Part shown: positions 5,829 through 14,585 of the stretch, piece by piece | Position numbering within the stretch: the stretch's first letter is position 1 | Layout of the letters: every line of letters starts with the position of its first letter | Origin: an uncultured Defluviitaleaceae bacterium | Lineage (GTDB): Bacteria > Bacillota > Clostridia > Lachnospirales > WRBF01 | DNA length: 64,000 bases | NCBI GenBank assembly: GCA_964533945.1 | Contig: CAZHPA010000006.1 | Coordinates: 157 to 64,156, forward strand | Reading direction: 5' to 3' | Notes under the pieces: generated by a model | The model's database searches: none | What the model saw: only the letters and a program-made list of their open reading frames with translations | Told to the model about the DNA's origin: nothing | Position numbers and translations under genes: made by a program

Positions 5829-6506
5829 TTGAAAAGAATTTTAATTATTGAAGATGACGAAAACCTAAGTCGTGGAATTGGCTTTTCATTTGAAAGCGAT
5901 GGTCATTTGGTGGTAACGGCAAACACACTTAAAGACGGAGAATTTGCTTTTGATAAAGGTGGTATTGATTGCATCATTCTTGATATTGGTCTGCCAGACG
6001 GAAGCGGACTGGATTTATGCAAGTATATTCGCCAAAAATCTGAAGTTCCAATTATTATGCTAACTGCATGTGACCTTGAAACAGATGAGGTGCAGGGGCT
6101 TAAATCGGGAGCTGATGATTATATTACCAAGCCTTTTTCATTATCTGTTTTAAAAGCAAGAGTGGAAGCGCTTTTTCGCCGTTTGGGCAAAGTAAAAAGT
6201 AATGTGTTAGAAATTTCAAAATACCGCCTAGACACATCGCTCTGTAAGTTTTTTATTAGTGGCACAGAAATACCTATTAGTGCAACTGAGTTTCGTTTGC
6301 TTCATTATTTAATGTCAAATGCAGGGCAAATTTTATCAAAGGAACAAATTCTTGCGTCACTTTGGGATAATGAAGGCAATTTTGTAGACGAGAACACTTT
6401 GTCGGTAAACATAAGCCGCCTTAGAGGAAAATTAGAAACTGACCCCAAAGCCCCAAAAGCAATTAAAACGATACACGGTATGGGCTATGTTTGGGTAAAG
6501 GAGTAA
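5829..6506 (+). CDS. OmpR-family DNA-binding response regulator
   Basis: 225 aa. Receiver domain (ILIIEDDE, ILDIGLPDGSG, KP motif) plus winged-helix output (..IKTIHGMGYVW). TTG start after an AAAGGAG SD. Confidence 0.9.
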   Translation: MKRILIIEDDENLSRGIGFSFESDGHLVVTANTLKDGEFAFDKGGIDCIILDIGLPDGSGLDLCKYIRQKSEVPIIMLTACDLETDEVQGLKSGADDYITKPFSLSVLKARVEALFRRLGKVKSNVLEISKYRLDTSLCKFFISGTEIPISATEFRLLHYLMSNAGQILSKEQILASLWDNEGNFVDENTLSVNISRLRGKLETDPKAPKAIKTIHGMGYVWVKE

Positions 6507-6511
6507 ACAAA

Positions 6512-7429
6512 ATGACTTATGTTATTATTTCGATTATTGCCTTATTGTTCTGTGTGTTGACTGTCTTATTATGCCGCTTGTATGTAAAACGAGCATTTGA
6601 CACAATCGACAAAACTCTTGATGGTATTTTAAATAAAAAACTAATACTGCCATCTTCCAAACTTGCTGATAATCGGATTTCAAAACTTAACCACAAGGCA
6701 TATCGTATTTTGGATATGTATGTATCTGATGCCGCTATTGCTAAAAATGAAAAGGAAACCATACAAGGCTTTATTTCGGATATGTCGCATCAAATGAAAA
6801 CACCTCTTTCCGGTATTTCTATGTATTCTGAGCTTTTGCTAAATAATAGCTTGCCAGAAACAGAAAGAAAGGAATTTTTGCTTAGAATTAAAAAACTTTC
6901 AGATAAAATGAAGTGGATTATGGACTGCCTGATTAAACTATCAAGGTTAGAGGTTGGCGCAATAGAGCTTAATCCCACAAACGCACCTGTAAATAAAACC
7001 GTTAAGGATGCTATTGGTAGCGTACTATCTATGGCAGCAAAGAAAGACATTAATATTATTGTAACGGATTTTAAAGAGTTAGAGCTTTACCATGACACAA
7101 AATGGACGACAGAAGTAATTACTAATCTTTTGGAAAATGCAATCAAATATTCATTGCAGGGTAGTACAATTGACATATCGGTCGAGTCACTTTCGTTATA
7201 TACAAAAATTGTAATAACCGATAACGGTATTGGTGTGCCAAAAGATGAGTTAAACAAAATTTTTAAACGATTTTATAGAGGTAAAAACACAAAGGAAATT
7301 GAAGGCGCAGGGCTTGGACTTTATCTTGCTGCACTTATTATGGAAAAACAGGGTGGGTATATTGCAGTTGATTCAAAGCAAGGCGAATTTACCTCCTTTT
7401 CGGTTTTCTTACAATGTTGTAAGAAATAA
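6512..7429 (+). CDS. Sensor histidine kinase with a single N-terminal TM anchor and no extracytoplasmic domain (intramembrane/transporter-dependent type)
   Basis: H-box FISDMSHQMKTPL. N, G1 and G2 boxes (LLENAIKYS, DNGIGVP, GAGLGLYL). Only one hydrophobic segment before HisKA. ATG at 6512 follows AAGGAG. Confidence 0.85.
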   Translation: MTYVIISIIALLFCVLTVLLCRLYVKRAFDTIDKTLDGILNKKLILPSSKLADNRISKLNHKAYRILDMYVSDAAIAKNEKETIQGFISDMSHQMKTPLSGISMYSELLLNNSLPETERKEFLLRIKKLSDKMKWIMDCLIKLSRLEVGAIELNPTNAPVNKTVKDAIGSVLSMAAKKDINIIVTDFKELELYHDTKWTTEVITNLLENAIKYSLQGSTIDISVESLSLYTKIVITDNGIGVPKDELNKIFKRFYRGKNTKEIEGAGLGLYLAALIMEKQGGYIAVDSKQGEFTSFSVFLQCCKK

Positions 7430-7523
7430 ATGAGATTTTGTAAGGTAGTTGTAAGAATTACGTCTTATAATAAAAAATATAAAGTCAATTATATATTTGA
7501 CTTAACGAAAGGAGTTAATGGGT

Positions 7524-7925
7524 ATGGCAATTTTAAAAACACAGGGACTTAAGAAACACTACGGAAAAGAAAATATCGTCCGCGCGCTTGATGGTGTTGA
7601 CATTGAAATTCATGCAGGTGAGTTTGTGGCTGTTGTTGGGCAGTCAGGTTCAGGAAAAAGTACATTGCTTCATATGCTTGGCGGTTTAGACAAACCGTCC
7701 ACTGGCAAAGTAATTGTTGACGGAAACGAGTTGTCGCAGATGAGCGATGAACAACTTACAATTTTTCGCCGACGCAATGTGGGTTTTGTTTTTCAAAACT
7801 ACAATCTCGTTCCGATTTTAAATGTATATGAAAACATTGTCTTACCCATTGAACTTGATGGCAATGCGGTTGACAAGGCTTTTGTAGATGAAATCATTAA
7901 TACGCTTGGGTTGGATGAAAAGAGT
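7524..7925 (+). CDS. ABC transporter ATP-binding protein, 5' segment (Walker A, Q-loop) upstream of the IStron insertion
   Basis: GQSGSGKSTLLHMLGG Walker A; FVFQNYNLVP..ENIVLP; ends ..TLGLDEKS. After that the ORF runs into unrelated sequence and stops at 7973. Confidence 0.85.
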
Positions 7926-8340
7926 TATTTAATAGTTATCAAAAACACACTTAAATATATTAAAACATATTGATAATTATACAAAGCTCTCATAGTACGG
8001 TGACGTGCTATGTTAAAACCACATCAAATACTAGTAATCCCTAAAGCTGCACTAACTACAACGTAAAGATGAAATAAGCTTAAGCGTGAATGTTGCGAAA
8101 GTAGAAAAAATAGTGCAGATGGCATAAGGTTAAATCCTAAGTGCTATAAAACAATGGGTCTTTAGTAGGATATGCCCGAACAGGGTACTCCTCAACGACT
8201 ATCCCGGCAGGGAGTAGGGGAAAGTTCCTCGAAACGAGTGGCTCTCATAAAAATATGAGATGATGAAATAGTCTGTGCTTATGCGAAAGTATAAGGAGTT
8301 CGTAAGAGAACCGGCAGTGATTAACGACCTCTGTTGAACA
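7926..8340 (+). ncRNA. Group I intron ribozyme core (5' module of the IStron)
   Basis: No ORF. P1: exon AGAGU (7921-25) with GCUCU (7986-90), giving U7925-G7986 wobble. P2 hairpin 7991-8012. P4: 8047-54 with 8111-18, in P/Q-like contexts AAAGCUGCACUAAC / AAUAGUGCAGAU. P3 candidate: 8038-43 with 8215-20. P7: GACUAU 8197-8202 with AUAGUC 8268-73, in R/S-like contexts UCAACGACUAUC / GAUGAAAUAGUCUG. P9 hairpin 8278-95 with a GAAA tetraloop, plus further GNRA-type loops. Confidence 0.65.
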
Positions 8341-8381
8341 ATTACCAAAAAAATATATAATTTATATTTTGTTTATTATAA

Positions 8382-8407
8382 AAGGCACAAAATTACTTTT
8401 GCGCCTT
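8382..8407 (-). terminator. Hairpin overlapping the RHH stop codon; possible terminator of the RHH transcript
   Basis: On the minus strand, AAGGCGCAAAA-GTAA-TTTTGTGCCTT forms an 11-bp stem followed by TTATAATAAAC. The U-tract is weak. Confidence 0.4.
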
Positions 8408-8551
8408 AGCAGCAAAATCCTTTAGAACAGTAATAACTAAATTATTGAAGCTCCGGTTTTGTTCTTTGGCTATACTTTCTAAAGTAGCCTTTAATTCTTT
8501 TGGAATTGTAAGCATTGTACGAGTATTATGTTCTGCTATGCTTCCAGCCAT
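8393..8551 (-). CDS. Ribbon-helix-helix (CopG/Arc/MetJ-like) DNA-binding protein, 52 aa, encoded antisense inside the IStron. Below the ORF-track size cut-off.
   Basis: Translation MAGSIAEHNTRTMLTIPKELKATLESIAKEQNRSFNNLVITVLKDFAAKAQK. This shows a beta-strand (RTMLTIP) followed by helix-helix, the pattern typical of RHH proteins. GAGGTG SD sits 5 nt upstream of the ATG. Confidence 0.7.
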   Translation of the reverse strand: MAGSIAEHNTRTMLTIPKELKATLESIAKEQNRSFNNLVITVLKDFAAKAQK

Positions 8552-8569
8552 ATTGTCACCTCAAATGTT

Positions 8570-8597
8570 ATTATACCATAATAAAAACTGTTGTCAA
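8570..8597 (-). promoter_or_regulatory. Sigma-A type promoter for the RHH gene (TTGACA-N16-TGgTATAAT)
   Basis: On the minus strand, the -35 TTGACA is the reverse complement of 8592-8597. The -10 TATAAT is the reverse complement of 8570-8575 and is preceded by a TG extended element. Confidence 0.5.
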
Positions 8598-8619
8598 TAT
8601 TTAATATAACTATTGACAA
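8591..8619. promoter_or_regulatory. Perfect inverted repeat TTGTCAATA-N11-TATTGACAA covering both divergent -35 boxes; candidate RHH operator
   Basis: Arms at 8591-8599 and 8611-8619 are exact reverse complements, and each arm contains a TTGACA -35 hexamer. Direct repeats TATGATAT at 8620-27 and 8631-38 (11-nt period) lie in the PtnpB spacer. Confidence 0.5.
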
Positions 8620-8641
8620 TATGATATCAGTATGATATAAT
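8613..8641 (+). promoter_or_regulatory. Consensus sigma-A promoter for tnpB (TTGACA-N17-TATAAT) internal to the IStron
   Basis: TTGACA 8613-18, 17-nt spacer, TATAAT 8636-41. GAGGTG SD at 8654-59, ATG at 8666. Confidence 0.55.
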
Positions 8642-8665
8642 AAGTATAGAAAGTGAGGTGAAACA

Positions 8666-9874
8666 ATGATTAAAGGACACAAAGTAAGATTGCTTCCAAC
8701 TGAAGAACAAGAAAAGCTTTTGTGGAAAAGTGTTAATGCTTCAAGGTTTGTATGGAATTGGGGTTTAGCTTTTCAAATGGATAGGTTTTCTAACGGTGAA
8801 AGTCATTTAAGTGGGTATGATTTAAGGAAGGTTTTAGTTCCTTTAAAGAAAACAGAAAAATTCAACTGGTTAAATGAAGTTTCTTCAAAAGTGTGTTCGC
8901 AAGGTTTATTGGATCTAGACACAGCATATAAAAAGTTCTTTAAAATCCAAAAAACAGGCGAAAAATTCACTAAGAAAGCTATTCAAAAAGCTAAGCGTAA
9001 AGGTAGAAAGTTAACACCTTATGATTTAAACGGACACCCAAAGTTTAAGTCTAAAAGAAAGGCAAAGCCAAGTTTTTATGTTACAGTAGATAATTTTTAT
9101 TTTAAAGACGGCAATGCAATTCTTGAAAAAATAGGCAAAATGCCTTACCAAACAACATACGAGCTACCACAAGGCAGAAATACTTGTAAATTTACTAATC
9201 CAAGAGTTTCATACGAAAATGGTAAATGGATTTTATCATTTGGTATGGACAGCAAAAACCAAGCTGAAACACTCAAAGATTATTCAGTTGGAATAGATTT
9301 AGGCGTAAAAGACTTAGCTGTTATTAGCTGTAATGGTGAAAAAACTGTATTTAAGAATATTAATAAAACTAAACGTGTAAGAAAACTAAAGAAACGTTTA
9401 AAACAATCACAACATAATGTAAGTCGAAAATATCATGCTAATGGCAAATATGACAAAACAAGCAATATTCTTAAAGCAGAGCAAAAACAAAAACAGCTAT
9501 ACATTAAGTTAAAAAATATTCGCAAAGATTATGCTCATAAAGTCACAACCAAGATAGTTAGGCTTCTTCCAAAAACGATTGTTATGGAAGACTTAAATGT
9601 ACAAGGTATGATGAAAAATGAACATCTTGCAGAAGCTATACAAGAACAATTGTTTTATGAGTTTTTACGGCAAATAGAATACAAATGCAGAGCTAAAGGC
9701 ATTACATTAATTCAGGCTAATAGATTCTACCCTAGTAGTAAAAAGTGTAGCCAATGCGGAAGTATTAAGCATAATCTAAAACTTAAAGACCGTAAATACA
9801 TATGCGAGCATTGTAATCTTGCTATAGACAGAGATTTTAACGCCGCAATCAATCTTGAAAAGTTAGCTTATTAA
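8666..9874 (+). CDS. tnpB: RNA-guided endonuclease TnpB (IS200/IS605-superfamily OrfB), apparently intact
   Basis: 402 aa. N-terminus KGHKVRLLPTEEQEKLL..RFVWNW. RuvC triad contexts GIDLGVKDLAV, IVMEDLNVQGM, AIDRDFNAAINL. Zinc ribbon CSQCGS..CEHCN. Confidence 0.92.
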   Translation: MIKGHKVRLLPTEEQEKLLWKSVNASRFVWNWGLAFQMDRFSNGESHLSGYDLRKVLVPLKKTEKFNWLNEVSSKVCSQGLLDLDTAYKKFFKIQKTGEKFTKKAIQKAKRKGRKLTPYDLNGHPKFKSKRKAKPSFYVTVDNFYFKDGNAILEKIGKMPYQTTYELPQGRNTCKFTNPRVSYENGKWILSFGMDSKNQAETLKDYSVGIDLGVKDLAVISCNGEKTVFKNINKTKRVRKLKKRLKQSQHNVSRKYHANGKYDKTSNILKAEQKQKQLYIKLKNIRKDYAHKVTTKIVRLLPKTIVMEDLNVQGMMKNEHLAEAIQEQLFYEFLRQIEYKCRAKGITLIQANRFYPSSKKCSQCGSIKHNLKLKDRKYICEHCNLAIDRDFNAAINLEKLAY

Positions 9875-10025
9875 AATTTTGAGAGTAAGTTAATTTTTGT
9901 GTAGGAAATTGCTATATCCGAATTTAAGCCTGTGGATAGCTATACCAAACACTATTAGCTACGCGAATGTGGGTTTTTTGAAACAGGAAATAAACAAAAC
10001 ATATATTTCTATATGTTTTTGGTAG
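9875..10025 (+). ncRNA. Omega-RNA-like scaffold / right end of the TnpB element (probably starts inside the tnpB 3' end)
   Basis: Lies directly 3' of tnpB. Conserved block GAATTTAAGCCTGTGGA..AGC..GAAACAGGAA is shared with the relic at 14430-14500. Terminal hairpin AAACATATA-TTTC-TATATGTTT at 9997-10018. Position and homology only; no covariance model was run. Confidence 0.5.
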
Positions 10026-10308
10026 CAGAAATAATCTCCCCAATATGCTTTCAGGCGGTCAACAACAGCGTGTGGCAATTGCAAGAGCTTTGGCAACAAA
10101 GCCGTCTATTATCCTAGCTGATGAACCGACTGGTAATCTCGACAGCAAAACAAGTCAAGATGTTTTAGGTGTTCTAAAAATGACTTCGAAAAAGTTTAAT
10201 CAAACCATTGTGATGATTACCCATAATGAGCAGATTGCTCAACTTGCCGACCGCGTTATTCATATTGAGGATGGCAAAGTAAAGGGCGGTGCAAATAATG
10301 AGAAATAA
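10026..10308 (+). CDS. ABC transporter ATP-binding protein, 3' segment (signature, Walker B, H-loop) downstream of the IStron
   Basis: In-frame (S)RNNLPNMLSGGQQQRVAIARALATKPSIILADEPTGNLDS...MITHN. It has no start codon or SD of its own in a sensible position. Confidence 0.85.
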
Positions 10309-12829
10309 CAATGCCGCCATTATACGAAAAATTGCAGGGCGCACCCTGTCTTCTGATAAAAAGCGTAATATCATGGCTATTTGTGCAATTACCCTCACGG
10401 CTGTGCTGTTTACTACCTTATTTACTCTGGGTATCGGCAGCATAGATATGTTCCAAAAGGCTACCATGCGACAGTCAGGTTCAAGCGCTCATGCAGTGAT
10501 AAATTATATTGATGATGAAGAATTTGAAAAAATAAGCAAACACCCTCTGGTAAAGGAAATTGCCTATACACGTATCTTGAGCGACAGCGTAGATAACCCA
10601 GAACTGCTAAAGAGACATGGCGAACTCTGGTACATGGACGATAACGGACTAAAGCAAGGTTTTTATGAGCCTATTGCAGGGAATAGACCTGTTGCTGAAA
10701 ACGAAATCATGATGGACACAAAAACAATGCTATTGTTGAAACTACCCCAACAAATCGGTGCAAAGGTAAAGCTTGTATTAACGATACATGGAAATCAAAT
10801 TGAGAGAGACTTTGTGCTATCTGGCTGGTGGGAAAGCGACCCAGCCTTCAATGCGAGTATTTTAATTACTTCAAAAGCATATATTGACAGGCATATCAAG
10901 GAACTTGTCGTTACTTATGATGATGACTATTCCCTTGTTGGTTTAATTAACGCAAATATACGTTTTAGTAATTCATTTAATATGCAAGCAAAACTTGATC
11001 GTGTAATATTGGAAAGCGGCTTTGATGGAGTGAACAAGAATGCCCCAAACTATGTTGACGGTAATATAAATTGGGCTTATCTTTCAACAACCACGGGAGG
11101 CGACCCCATAACTACAGCTGCCATGTTTGTTGCCCTTATGTTGGTAGCTTTTACAGGATATTTAATTATTTACAATATATTTCAAATTTCAGTATTGCGT
11201 AATATTCGTTACTATGGATTACTGAAAACCATCGGAGCCACAGGGCGACAAATTAAAAACATCATCACCTTGCAAGCAACAGTACTTTCTCTGATTGGCA
11301 TACCAATTGGGCTTGCGTTGGGATATACTGTAGGTACCAAGCTTGTTCCAATGGTTTTGGCACAAACAGATTTTACAGGAACGACTTCAGAATTATCGGC
11401 AAACCCCATTATTTTTATAGCCTCTGCCGTATTTGCATGGATAACTGTGTGCATTTCCACACGCAAGCCTGGGAAAATTGCTGCAAAGGTTTCGCCTATG
11501 GAAGCAATACGATACACCGATTCCGATGTGGGCAACAAAAGAACAATGAAACGCTCTACTAATGGTGGAAAGCTTTACAAAATGGCGCTATTTAATTTGG
11601 GAAGGACTAAAAAACGCACTGCTTTGGTATTCATCTCCTTGTCATTAAGTTTAGTATTACTAAACTGCGTATTTACCTTATCTCAAGGTATGGATATGGA
11701 CAAATTTTTATCCAAATTTGTTGACAATGATTTTTTAATTGCTCATGCTAATTATTTTAATAGCCATTATTTTGGTACTGAAAGTGCCGTGGAAGAAAGT
11801 ATAATTACAAATATGGAAGCGCAGCCGGGGTTTGAGGCTGGTGGAAGACTTTACAAAACTAACAATGAATATTTTACAGTAGAGGACTCTAACAATCAGA
11901 ATAAATATAATCAAGGCCATGACAGCCACCAAATTGCTGATGTTTACGGTCTAGATGACCTACCGCTTGAACGGTTAGAAGTTATAGAAGGAGAGCTTGA
12001 TATTGAGAAGTTAAAATCCGGCGGCTATATCTTAGTAGGAGTTAACATCGATGATTTTGGTAAACCAGAAGCAGCCAAATTTAATGTAGGCGATACAGTT
12101 ATTTTACACAATTACCACATGCAAAGCTCTAACATATTAGATAAGGAGTATACGACCCAAGTATATGAGGTGCTTGCTATCGTGAAGATTAACTACTTTT
12201 CCAATTCAAATCGAACATGGAGTAGTTACACATTTTACATGCCATCAAGTATTTATCTTCCTCTCACGTACGAAAAAACAATTATGAGTTATACGTTCAA
12301 TGTCGCAGATGAATTAGAAGAGCATGTGGAGTCATTCTTGAAGTATTACACAGAAAATGAAGAACCGCTGATGCATTACGAATCAAAAGAGACCCATGTA
12401 AAAGAATTTATGGGTATGCGAAACTTAATTCTTTCTATTGGCAGCATATTGAGCGGTATTATTGGATTAATTGGTATACTGAATCTTATAAACACTGTGT
12501 TCGCCAGCGTAATCACGCGTCGTCAAGAGTTTGCTATGTTACAGAGTATTGGCATGACGAAAAGACAGCTTAGAAATATGCTCTGTTTAGAGGGGCTTTA
12601 CTATGCAGTTGGAACAATAATTGTTTCGTTTGTGTTAGGGGTTTTAAGTTCACATTTCATTATCCGAATATTAATGAGTGGATTGTGGTTTGTAACCTAT
12701 CAGTTTATTGTTTTGCCGCTTATAATATGTTGGCCAATTTTTTTCCTAATATCATTGTTTATTCCTATTATAATTTTTAACGGAAGTATGAAAGAAAGTG
12801 TAGTGGAGCGTTTGAGGGAAGTAGAATGA
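10298..12829 (+). CDS. FtsX/MacB-type ABC transporter permease with large extracytoplasmic domains
   Basis: About 843 aa. N-terminus MRNNNAAIIRKIAGRTL is typical of this permease family. Two FtsX-like TM bundles (..YGLLKTIGATGRQI.. and ..FAMLQSIGMTKRQL..). Its start overlaps the ATPase stop. An alternative GTG lies at 10289. Confidence 0.85.
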   Translation: MRNNNAAIIRKIAGRTLSSDKKRNIMAICAITLTAVLFTTLFTLGIGSIDMFQKATMRQSGSSAHAVINYIDDEEFEKISKHPLVKEIAYTRILSDSVDNPELLKRHGELWYMDDNGLKQGFYEPIAGNRPVAENEIMMDTKTMLLLKLPQQIGAKVKLVLTIHGNQIERDFVLSGWWESDPAFNASILITSKAYIDRHIKELVVTYDDDYSLVGLINANIRFSNSFNMQAKLDRVILESGFDGVNKNAPNYVDGNINWAYLSTTTGGDPITTAAMFVALMLVAFTGYLIIYNIFQISVLRNIRYYGLLKTIGATGRQIKNIITLQATVLSLIGIPIGLALGYTVGTKLVPMVLAQTDFTGTTSELSANPIIFIASAVFAWITVCISTRKPGKIAAKVSPMEAIRYTDSDVGNKRTMKRSTNGGKLYKMALFNLGRTKKRTALVFISLSLSLVLLNCVFTLSQGMDMDKFLSKFVDNDFLIAHANYFNSHYFGTESAVEESIITNMEAQPGFEAGGRLYKTNNEYFTVEDSNNQNKYNQGHDSHQIADVYGLDDLPLERLEVIEGELDIEKLKSGGYILVGVNIDDFGKPEAAKFNVGDTVILHNYHMQSSNILDKEYTTQVYEVLAIVKINYFSNSNRTWSSYTFYMPSSIYLPLTYEKTIMSYTFNVADELEEHVESFLKYYTENEEPLMHYESKETHVKEFMGMRNLILSIGSILSGIIGLIGILNLINTVFASVITRRQEFAMLQSIGMTKRQLRNMLCLEGLYYAVGTIIVSFVLGVLSSHFIIRILMSGLWFVTYQFIVLPLIICWPIFFLISLFIPIIIFNGSMKESVVERLREVE

Positions 12830-14270: not shown

Positions 14271-14585
14271 ATTTACAATACTTTGTATTGACTTTTGTTT
14301 TGCTAATTATTATAATAATTATTAGGCAAAAACCAAGCCTTAAAAAATGTTTTATCAACAGTTTGTTCTGTTGTATAGCTAGAATATCACAATAAAAGAT
14401 ACTAGCTATGTGTACGCAACGATACTGCGGAATTTAAGCCTGTGGAGCGTTATAACAAATGAGAGTAGCTTTGGCAAAACCAGACGCATTGAAGCAGGAA
14501 GGTACAGAACGAAAAACCGAAAGGTATAAGTCGTATCACAGTATAAATGTCTACATTTTGTTAGAAATGTATGTGTTTTTCGTAT
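14271..14585 (+). mobile_element. Relic mini-derivative of the 8.6-10.0 kb element: operator/promoter remnant plus omega-RNA-like scaffold, no tnpB
   Basis: CAATAC-TTT-GTATTGAC (14276-14292) resembles the CAATA..TATTGAC operator. TTGACT-N17-TATAAT at 14288-14316. TGTGTA..GAATTTAAGCCTGTGGAGCG..AGTAGCT..GAAGCAGGAAG (14410-14500) parallels 9922-9990. The end GTGTTTTTCGTAT parallels ATGTTTTTGGTAG. Confidence 0.45.

Follow-up and report, generated by a model that had tools for sequence, protein, structure and literature searches.

IStrons are group I introns fused to a transposon of the IS605 or IS607 type (Tourasse et al., 2014, PMC4227781; Zedaveinyte et al., bioRxiv 10.1101/2023.11.20.567912). 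The stretch of bacterial DNA analyzed here (64,000 nt, hereafter the window) holds an ABC-transporter ATPase gene that starts at position 7518 and is interrupted after ...LGLDEK, with the signature motif LSGGQQQR reappearing near position 10045. A preliminary description of the locus recognized the core of a group I ribozyme within the interruption and reported that the canonical splice rules and the restoration of the ATPase reading frame disagree by one nucleotide. The question is therefore where the intron begins and ends, and whether its removal would give back the ATPase. The reading favored in this analysis, with a probability of roughly 85%, is that positions 7925-10028 form a group B (IS607-type) IStron that is cut after G7924, has G10028 as its terminal G and leaves a restored ATPase. 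All positions refer to the window, and features lie on the forward (+) strand unless stated otherwise.

The element is 2,104 nt long and lies inside the ATPase gene in the sense orientation. Its extent (7925-10028) was fixed by homologue spacing, right-end alignment, left-end comparison and the restoration of open reading frames in relatives; the 5' end reads TTATTTAATAG, the 3' end reads TTTTTGGTAGCAG and the AU-rich tail terminates as GGTAGCAG. From left to right, it consists of the group I core, an Arc-like gene, tnpB, an omega RNA scaffold and the right end, and it is this order of a structured RNA, a 52-aa gene, tnpB, a RAGATH-18 motif and an AU-rich tail that defines the layout as that of an IStron. 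The serine-recombinase TnpA (IS607 ORF A) is absent from this copy, which is consequently non-autonomous, and no second IStron copy turned up when the element was compared with the window by self-BLAST. According to the ORF listing, the 5' exon of the ATPase (7518-7924) ends with ...GAT GAA AAG AG, and the 3' exon (10029-10308) begins with A AAT AAT CTC CCC; the element is inserted downstream of the Q-loop region and upstream of the ABC signature motif. The neighboring genes are a response regulator (5829-6506), a histidine kinase (6491-7429) and, beyond the split ATPase, an 846-aa permease (10289-12829), the counterpart of which has an FtsX domain in L081, the locus with the best intact ATPase gene. 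The arrangement of this region (5829-12829) corresponds to the layout of a two-component-regulated ABC export module.

The ribozyme core spans 8019-8311, with all helices from P3 to P9.1, and was delimited from pair counts on an alignment of the window with five relatives (L001, L067, L003, L002 and L082; alignment A2), on which the structure was built by hand, together with the Rfam group I model RF00028. Over the ten core helices (53 pairs), 96.7% of the alignment cells are paired, and compensatory changes affecting both sides are found in 32 of the 53 pairs. None of 500 shuffled controls paired as highly, and structures slid by 1-3 columns paired in 34-43% of cells; because the pairing lies far beyond both controls, the core is considered to be real. 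The helices follow the group I order, including the P3/P7 pseudoknot: P3 (8019-25 with 8236-41), P4 (8029-34 with 8162-67, in a P/Q sequence context), P5 (8039-41 with 8156-58), P5a (8047-54 with 8111-18), P6 (8174-77 with 8183-86), P7 (8197-8202 with 8268-73), P7.1 (8203-05 with 8210-12), P8 (8244-49 with 8254-59), P9 (8278-84 with 8289-95) and P9.1 (8298-8301 with 8308-11). The positions of P4 and P5 were carried over from the Rfam alignment of L082 via alignment A2. The P7 described previously was recovered as a perfect 6 bp helix with two covarying pairs, as was the P9 capped by a GAAA tetraloop. The helix previously labeled P4 (8047-54 with 8111-18) also exists, as a perfect 8 bp with covariation in seven of its eight pairs, but the label does not hold, since it is nested inside P5 and is P5a-like.

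The minimum-energy fold of the element with the ORF region removed recovered P1, a P1 extension hairpin, P2-P6, P7.1, P8, P9 and P9.1. No match to RF00028 was obtained in scans of the whole window or of the 2.25 kb segment 7850-10100. With 7985-8300 alone, the score was 26 bits (E = 7.5e-5), below the gathering score of 50, with the 3' half of the core (the R/P7 strand, P8, S and P9) well aligned. The relative L082, which has the same core as the window, scored 51.7 bits and thus exceeded the gathering score, and L001, L067 and L002 gave no RF00028 match at E<=1. Phage group I introns share 70-80% identity with the core over P3-P9, and the helix order of the core, P7.1 included, is that of the Twort-like IA2 introns of Staphylococcus and Bacillus phages. 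By its sequence and predicted structure, the intron is IA2-like (Twort-like).

Upstream of the core, P2 is a hairpin (7991-8012; 7991-99 with 8004-12, loop GUGA) that was present in the minimum-energy fold, and equivalent hairpins are visible in relatives. Directly 5' of it lies the internal guide sequence AGCUCU (7985-7990), the 3' strand of P1, which occupies the same place relative to P2 in L001, L067 and L002. The P1 proposed in the preliminary description, AGAGU (7921-25) with GCUCU (7986-90) and U7925 facing G7986, is present, and the minimum-energy fold lengthens it to 7921-26 with 7985-90; its 5' strand (7921-7926), supported by duplex and minimum-energy folds, therefore comprises the exon bases AGAG and the intron bases U7925 and U7926. 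The P1 loop is 58 nt long, in agreement with the earlier estimate of about 58 nt. The suggestion that it houses the left end of the transposon appears reasonable, as it contains the extension hairpin of the left-end region (7932-7980; 7932-42 with 7970-80 in the minimum-energy fold) as well as a stretch that can pair with the right end (7934-61 with 10000-27, -18.6 kcal/mol). A further long-range pairing joins the arms of an AU-rich inverted-repeat stem around the ORF region, the 5' arm of which (8342-8377) coincides with the inverted repeats I3 and I5; 8342-77 with 9989-10025 forms about 35 bp, with a duplex energy of -22.6 kcal/mol. A long AU-rich stem enclosing the ORFs is a hallmark of group B IStrons (Tourasse et al., 2014, PMC4227781). 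In another predicted fold, the right end forms a local terminal hairpin (9996-10019, -6.6 kcal/mol) that is part of the guide-RNA scaffold. These modeled alternative folds of the right end match the published competition between splicing and the guide RNA.

The 3' end of the intron was determined from relatives. Through the TnpB protein, 80 genome loci were gathered, about ten of which have a related intron upstream of tnpB. The right ends of eight relatives align gaplessly as ...TAT(A/G)(T/A)GTTTTT(A/G)G.A.C(A/G)G, and the flanks diverge straight after the final G, which is invariant and corresponds to G10028 in the window. G10025, taken as the terminal G in the preliminary description, falls 3 nt too early, in a column that holds G, T, C or A. 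Near-identical sibling copies, sought in order to define the ends precisely, were not found: the exact TnpB occurs on one contig of the protein collection, and the next best is 65% identical. The element and its nearest relatives (L001, L067 and L003) end with CAG, and L002, L074, L083, L084, L085 and L098 end with CGG, which is the published ending of group B or IS607 elements (Tourasse et al., 2014, PMC4227781; Zedaveinyte et al.). From this alignment, the terminal G of the intron is predicted to be G10028, within a terminal CAG at 10026-28. A P10-like pairing had been put forward in favor of G10015; this candidate was dropped, since G10015 lies within the conserved right-end hairpin. No convincing P10 was found between the start of the 3' exon and the bases that precede the guide, the best candidate consisting of 4-5 AU pairs that compete with the P1 extension hairpin. 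As a separate observation, 10021-10028 reads GGUAG/CAG/, with two Gs 3 nt apart and an A before each. This tandem UAG/CAG might provide two in-frame 3' sites, of which the upstream one would add a serine.

Joining 7924 to 10029 (written 7924/10029, the slash marking the cut) gives the DNA sequence GAAAAGAG/AAATAAT, with the codons GAT GAA AAG AG/A AAT AAT CTC CCC, and the in-frame translation DEK/RNNLPNM. The two closest intact ATPase homologues read LGLDEKRNNLPNM and have no additional residue. The spacing between two anchor motifs is 40 residues in 102 of the 102 ATPase homologues having both; it is 40 for 7924/10029 as opposed to 41 for the in-frame junctions 7925/10027 and 7924/10026, and 7924/10029 is the only candidate with a spacing that fits the homologues. 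The spliced DNA aligns with the intact L081 gene without a gap across the junction, and the spliced product of 228 aa shares 84-87% identity with its nearest intact homologues, with the exons conserved over their full length. Two of the ATPase homologues, P0001 (350 aa) and P0010 (270 aa), contain internal repeats, for example of the Walker A region, and look like assembly or gene-call artefacts and not genuine longer proteins. The exact empty-site allele was not found, the best intact ATPase gene (L081) being 76% identical in DNA, and for this reason the junction rests on the conservation of length and sequence together with the homology of the ends. The predicted sequence of the uninterrupted site is GATGAAAAGAGAAATAATCTCCCC, and AAGAGCAGAAAT or AAGAGTAGAAAT would be at odds with the proposed junction.

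The earlier frame arithmetic was correct in that 7925/10027 and 7924/10026 are in frame and 7925/10026 gives KSQK followed by a stop. However, 7924/10029 was not among its candidates; it is preferred here on account of the spacing and the alignment of the terminal G. Comparison of proteins is blind to the difference between 7924/10026 and 7925/10027, as AGC and AGT both encode Ser, whereas 7924/10029 is distinguished by length. The joins 7922/10027, 7923/10028 and 7924/10029 yield an identical sequence, AG being found at both sides, and only in the last of these does a G precede the 3' cut. A cut after U7925 with joining to A10029 would read AGU/AAA UAA, out of frame. With G10028 as the terminal base and the frame restored only by an exon that ends with G7924, U7925 becomes the first base of the intron, and we infer a 5' splice site between G7924 and U7925. 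As judged from these comparisons, the ATPase gene is not a pseudogene, and 7924/10029 is its predicted true exon junction.

The best surviving alternative, although improbable, is that G10025 is the terminal G and the 5' exon ends with G7924, the product then being DEK-S-RNN with an extra serine. Such a junction, which would read AAGAGCAGAAAU, is in frame, UA precedes G10025 much as CA precedes G10028, and published libraries of mutant IStrons use G-ending alternative 3' sites no more than about 10 nt from the native one. However, the added codon is missing from 102 of 102 homologues, and G10025 occupies a variable alignment column, whereas G10028 is invariant. Furthermore, the boundaries of the RNA and the DNA would differ, unlike those of every studied IStron. 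It is also quite improbable that the intron no longer splices, so that the element is a DNA transposon or a relic and the ATPase a pseudogene. The missing tnpA, the single copy in the window, the occurrence of the exact TnpB on a single contig of the protein collection and the Rfam score under the threshold would agree with such decay; however, every core helix is intact, the changes specific to the window are compensatory, and both exons, like tnpB, the Arc-like gene and the omega RNA, are open and conserved.

The favored cut after G7924 differs from the practice of canonical group I introns, in which the last exon base is U (Tourasse et al., 2014, PMC4227781). In the window, the last base of the 5' exon, G7924, is paired to C7987, and the U7925-G7986 pair lies one base within the intron; inspection by eye found no P1 register that would give G7924 a wobble pair. 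The same shift has been described for group B IStrons, in which the last exon base is G, the next U is intronic and the U-G pair is one base off (Tourasse et al., 2014, PMC4227781), and the G junction was confirmed for BcISt1 by sequencing ligated exons and intron circles after RT-PCR (Tourasse et al., 2014, PMC4227781). For the CboIStron, in which the rule likewise has experimental backing, splicing and excision of the transposon were shown to leave one and the same junction (Zedaveinyte et al., bioRxiv 10.1101/2023.11.20.567912). The relatives with fixed boundaries (L001, L003, L067, L002, L074 and L098) conform to this pattern: the 5' exon ends with G, the intron starts with U or C and ends with CAG or CGG, and joining the flanks regains long ORFs in a single frame only. 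In L003, the joined flanks contain the exact PAP2 motif SRLYLG/VHYPKDV, in L067 they form a DapF-like gene and in L098 the H-box of a histidine kinase. The exon end and the guide covary among relatives (AGAG with CUCU, GGAG with CUCC, GAGG with CCUC and GGG with CCC), and the base before the cut is a G paired to C throughout. The first intron base of the window element, L002, L082, L074 and L098 forms a U-G pair, that of L001 and L053 a U-A pair and that of L067 and L003 a C-G pair.

These comparisons bear on the reading in which the cut follows U7925 in the canonical manner and the spliced transcript is frameshifted, so that the ATPase is inactivated and splicing is unproductive. The U7925-G7986 pair does look like a textbook wobble within P1, but both exons are intact and 84-87% identical to their closest homologues over the full length, the relatives place the cut between G and U or C and restore their ORFs, the wobble is not conserved (C-G in L067 and L003; U-A in L001 and L053), and the equivalent U has been experimentally excluded for BcISt1 (Tourasse et al., 2014, PMC4227781); this reading is thus very unlikely. 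An assembly or sequencing error of 1 nt at one junction, which nothing but the conflict itself would suggest, is hardly credible, as independent elements in at least seven other assemblies share the pattern of G followed by U or C and an end of ...C(A/G)G, and correction of the 3' site is enough to close the frame, with every base left as it is. The one-nucleotide conflict noted in the preliminary description is therefore real even after correction of the 3' end, but it is not unexplained, being the published habit of group B IStrons to splice after G. Of the three outcomes that had been offered, non-canonical splicing stands; an unproductive copy and a sequence error are unnecessary, because the relatives and the group B IStrons of Tourasse et al. 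(2014) share the one-base shift.

In the Clostridium lentum IStrons L067 (cut at 2330/2331) and L003 (2342/2343), the first intron base forms a C-G pair and the host ORFs are exactly restored. In L001 (1032/1033), as in L053, it forms a U-A pair. None of these elements has a wobble at or beside the 5' splice site, yet exact restoration of the host ORFs is seen. It is conceivable, although rather doubtful, that this clade chooses its 5' splice site independently of a U-G wobble, by a rule unlike that accepted for group I introns. The rule of a G-ending cut might be imposed by a requirement of the transposase or TnpB for a G-ending target.

Taken together, the proposed sequence of events is as follows. 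The 5' part of the transcript (about 420 nt) would fold into an IA2-like (Twort-like) group I ribozyme, and the AU-rich stem (8342-77 with 9989-10025) would loop out the Arc-like gene and tnpB, bringing the terminal GCAG beside the core. The AGAG at the end of the exon would pair with the guide at 7987-90, cleavage would follow G7924, one base upstream of the canonical-type U7925-G7986 pair, and G10028 would act as the terminal G. The ligated mRNA would read GAAAAGAG/AAAUAAUC and encode ...LGLDEK/RNNLPNMLSGGQQQR, an intact ATPase. At the DNA level, the same ends would be those of the transposon, with the AG of the target and the AG of the right end as the shared core dinucleotide, and the right end and the 3' exon as RNA would form the guide RNA of TnpB, in competition with splicing. 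The boundaries, helices and homology come from the present analysis; that this copy splices, in which order the steps occur and that TnpB is active are deduced by analogy with relatives studied by experiment.

The tnpB gene (8666-9874) encodes 402 aa with Pfam matches to HTH_OrfB_IS605, OrfB_IS605 and the Cas12f1-like TNB domain, and GIDLG, MEDL and DRDFNAAINL were read by eye from its translation as candidate RuvC motifs. The omega RNA scaffold and right end (9929-10028) were assigned from RF03064, the right-end alignment and the fold; RAGATH-18 (RF03064) matched 9929-9989 with 48 bits against a gathering score of 44.9, and the fold adds the terminal hairpin (9996-10019) at the right end. The AGAG at 7921-24 presumably serves as the transposon target and the target-adjacent motif of TnpB. 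By analogy, the first ~16-20 nt of the 3' exon would double as the omega RNA guide, the predicted sequence of which is AAATAATCTCCCCAAT. The Arc-like ribbon-helix-helix gene (8393-8551, reverse strand) encodes 52 aa with a weak match to Pfam RHH_5. It has 82 homologues; in three of the three contexts examined, the gene is divergent from tnpB, and homologues beside tnpB are also found in L002, L016 and L098. For both IStrons and IS605-family elements, an Arc-like repressor has already been published as an accessory (Moon et al., 2026, preprint; Zedaveinyte et al.), and the gene was accordingly dropped as a novelty. Between this gene and tnpB, a putative divergent promoter pair (8570-8641) comprises two back-to-back sites that match the consensus at 12 of 12 positions and have a TG extension; the one at 8613-8641 (+) faces tnpB and the one at 8597-8570 (-) faces the Arc-like gene. 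Both overlap a palindrome at 8591-8619 (I21; 13 nt, TTGTCAATATTTA/TAACTATTGACAA); the promoter function of 8570-8641 is suggested by these motifs.

Among known systems, the element was likened to CsISt1 of Clostridium sporogenes (group B, IS607 family) by the published description of the latter, an IA2-type element with an AG insertion site, a CAG end and tnpB without tnpA (Tourasse et al., 2014, PMC4227781). The window element is similarly inserted after AAGAG, ends with GCAG and carries tnpB only; CsISt1 and CbISt4 are non-autonomous in the same way. CsISt1 is 2,369 bp in length compared with 2,104 bp here, and no Arc-like gene is mentioned for it in Tourasse et al. (2014), whereas the window element has one. 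With its G-ending site, first base U and CAG end as in CsISt1, the element carries these signs of group B. BcISt1 of Bacillus cereus ATCC 10987 resembles it in the exon-final G, the intron-initial U and the AU-rich stem enclosing the ORFs; however, the target of BcISt1 is AGGG and its end CGG (GG core), as opposed to AG and CAG, and its U-G pair is directly followed by an internal loop (Tourasse et al., 2014), whereas the window adds the pair U7926-A7985. The CboIStron of Clostridium botulinum is of the IS607 type with splice sites equal to the transposon ends, and its omega RNA, which extends across the 3' splice site, is in competition with splicing (Zedaveinyte et al.). An Arc-like ORF was noted in IStrons in the same study, as is present here. 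The CboIStron differs in its target motif TGGG, its scaffold end UCGG and the existence of autonomous copies with a serine-recombinase tnpA. On the C. botulinum plasmid p1BKT015925, an IStron (L098) has an intron, an Arc-like gene, tnpB and omega RNA in the layout of the window. CdISt1, or CdiIStron, of Clostridioides difficile (group A, IS605-type) shares the combination of an IA2 intron, tnpB and omega RNA, but it has the target TTGAT, a canonical exon-final U with a flanked U-G pair, a TCAG end, a short balanced stem and a tyrosine-type TnpA. Another element on a C. botulinum plasmid (L097) resembles this group A type, with TTGAT and TCAG, and was rejected as a close comparator.

In L074 and L052, an IS607-type tnpA encoding a MerR domain plus resolvase lies directly upstream of tnpB, which supports the IS607 assignment; for the window copy, this assignment is drawn from its relatives and end sequences only. 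A scan of viral contigs for the core motif found 63 loci, 12 of them with tnpB downstream, and no more AG-core members with clear ends among the 63. Loci L084, L085 and L086, the tnpB genes of which are 60-61% identical to that of the window, have no intron; an upstream gene is located within ~30-90 nt of tnpB, and the right-end tail is the same (...GTTTTTA.CAA(C/T)GG). Since these intronless elements share the tail, gain or loss of the intron has occurred between close relatives, in line with the literature.

The splice-after-G puzzle has already been published and experimentally verified for relatives of this element, and the present data establish no new principle. What is new is an AG-core member of the IS607-type IStrons, for which CsISt1 is the only other one named in the literature examined. 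The window and its relatives further indicate that the base after the cut can be Watson-Crick paired in place of a wobble, and such +1 pairs sharpen the question raised in 2014 of how these ribozymes choose a 5' splice site after G. For annotation, RF00028 at its gathering score misses such introns, with the result that genes split by IStrons will often be called broken, and Rfam-based annotation will find too few introns of this subgroup.

Elsewhere in the window, a second and stronger match to RAGATH-18 (71.6 bits) was found at 14439-14500 (+); it is intergenic, and neither tnpB nor an intron lies close to it. One possibility is an orphan scaffold of a guide RNA, another a relic of the right end of a transposon. 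The match has just a 30-nt stretch in common with the scaffold of the IStron copy, at 86.7% identity.
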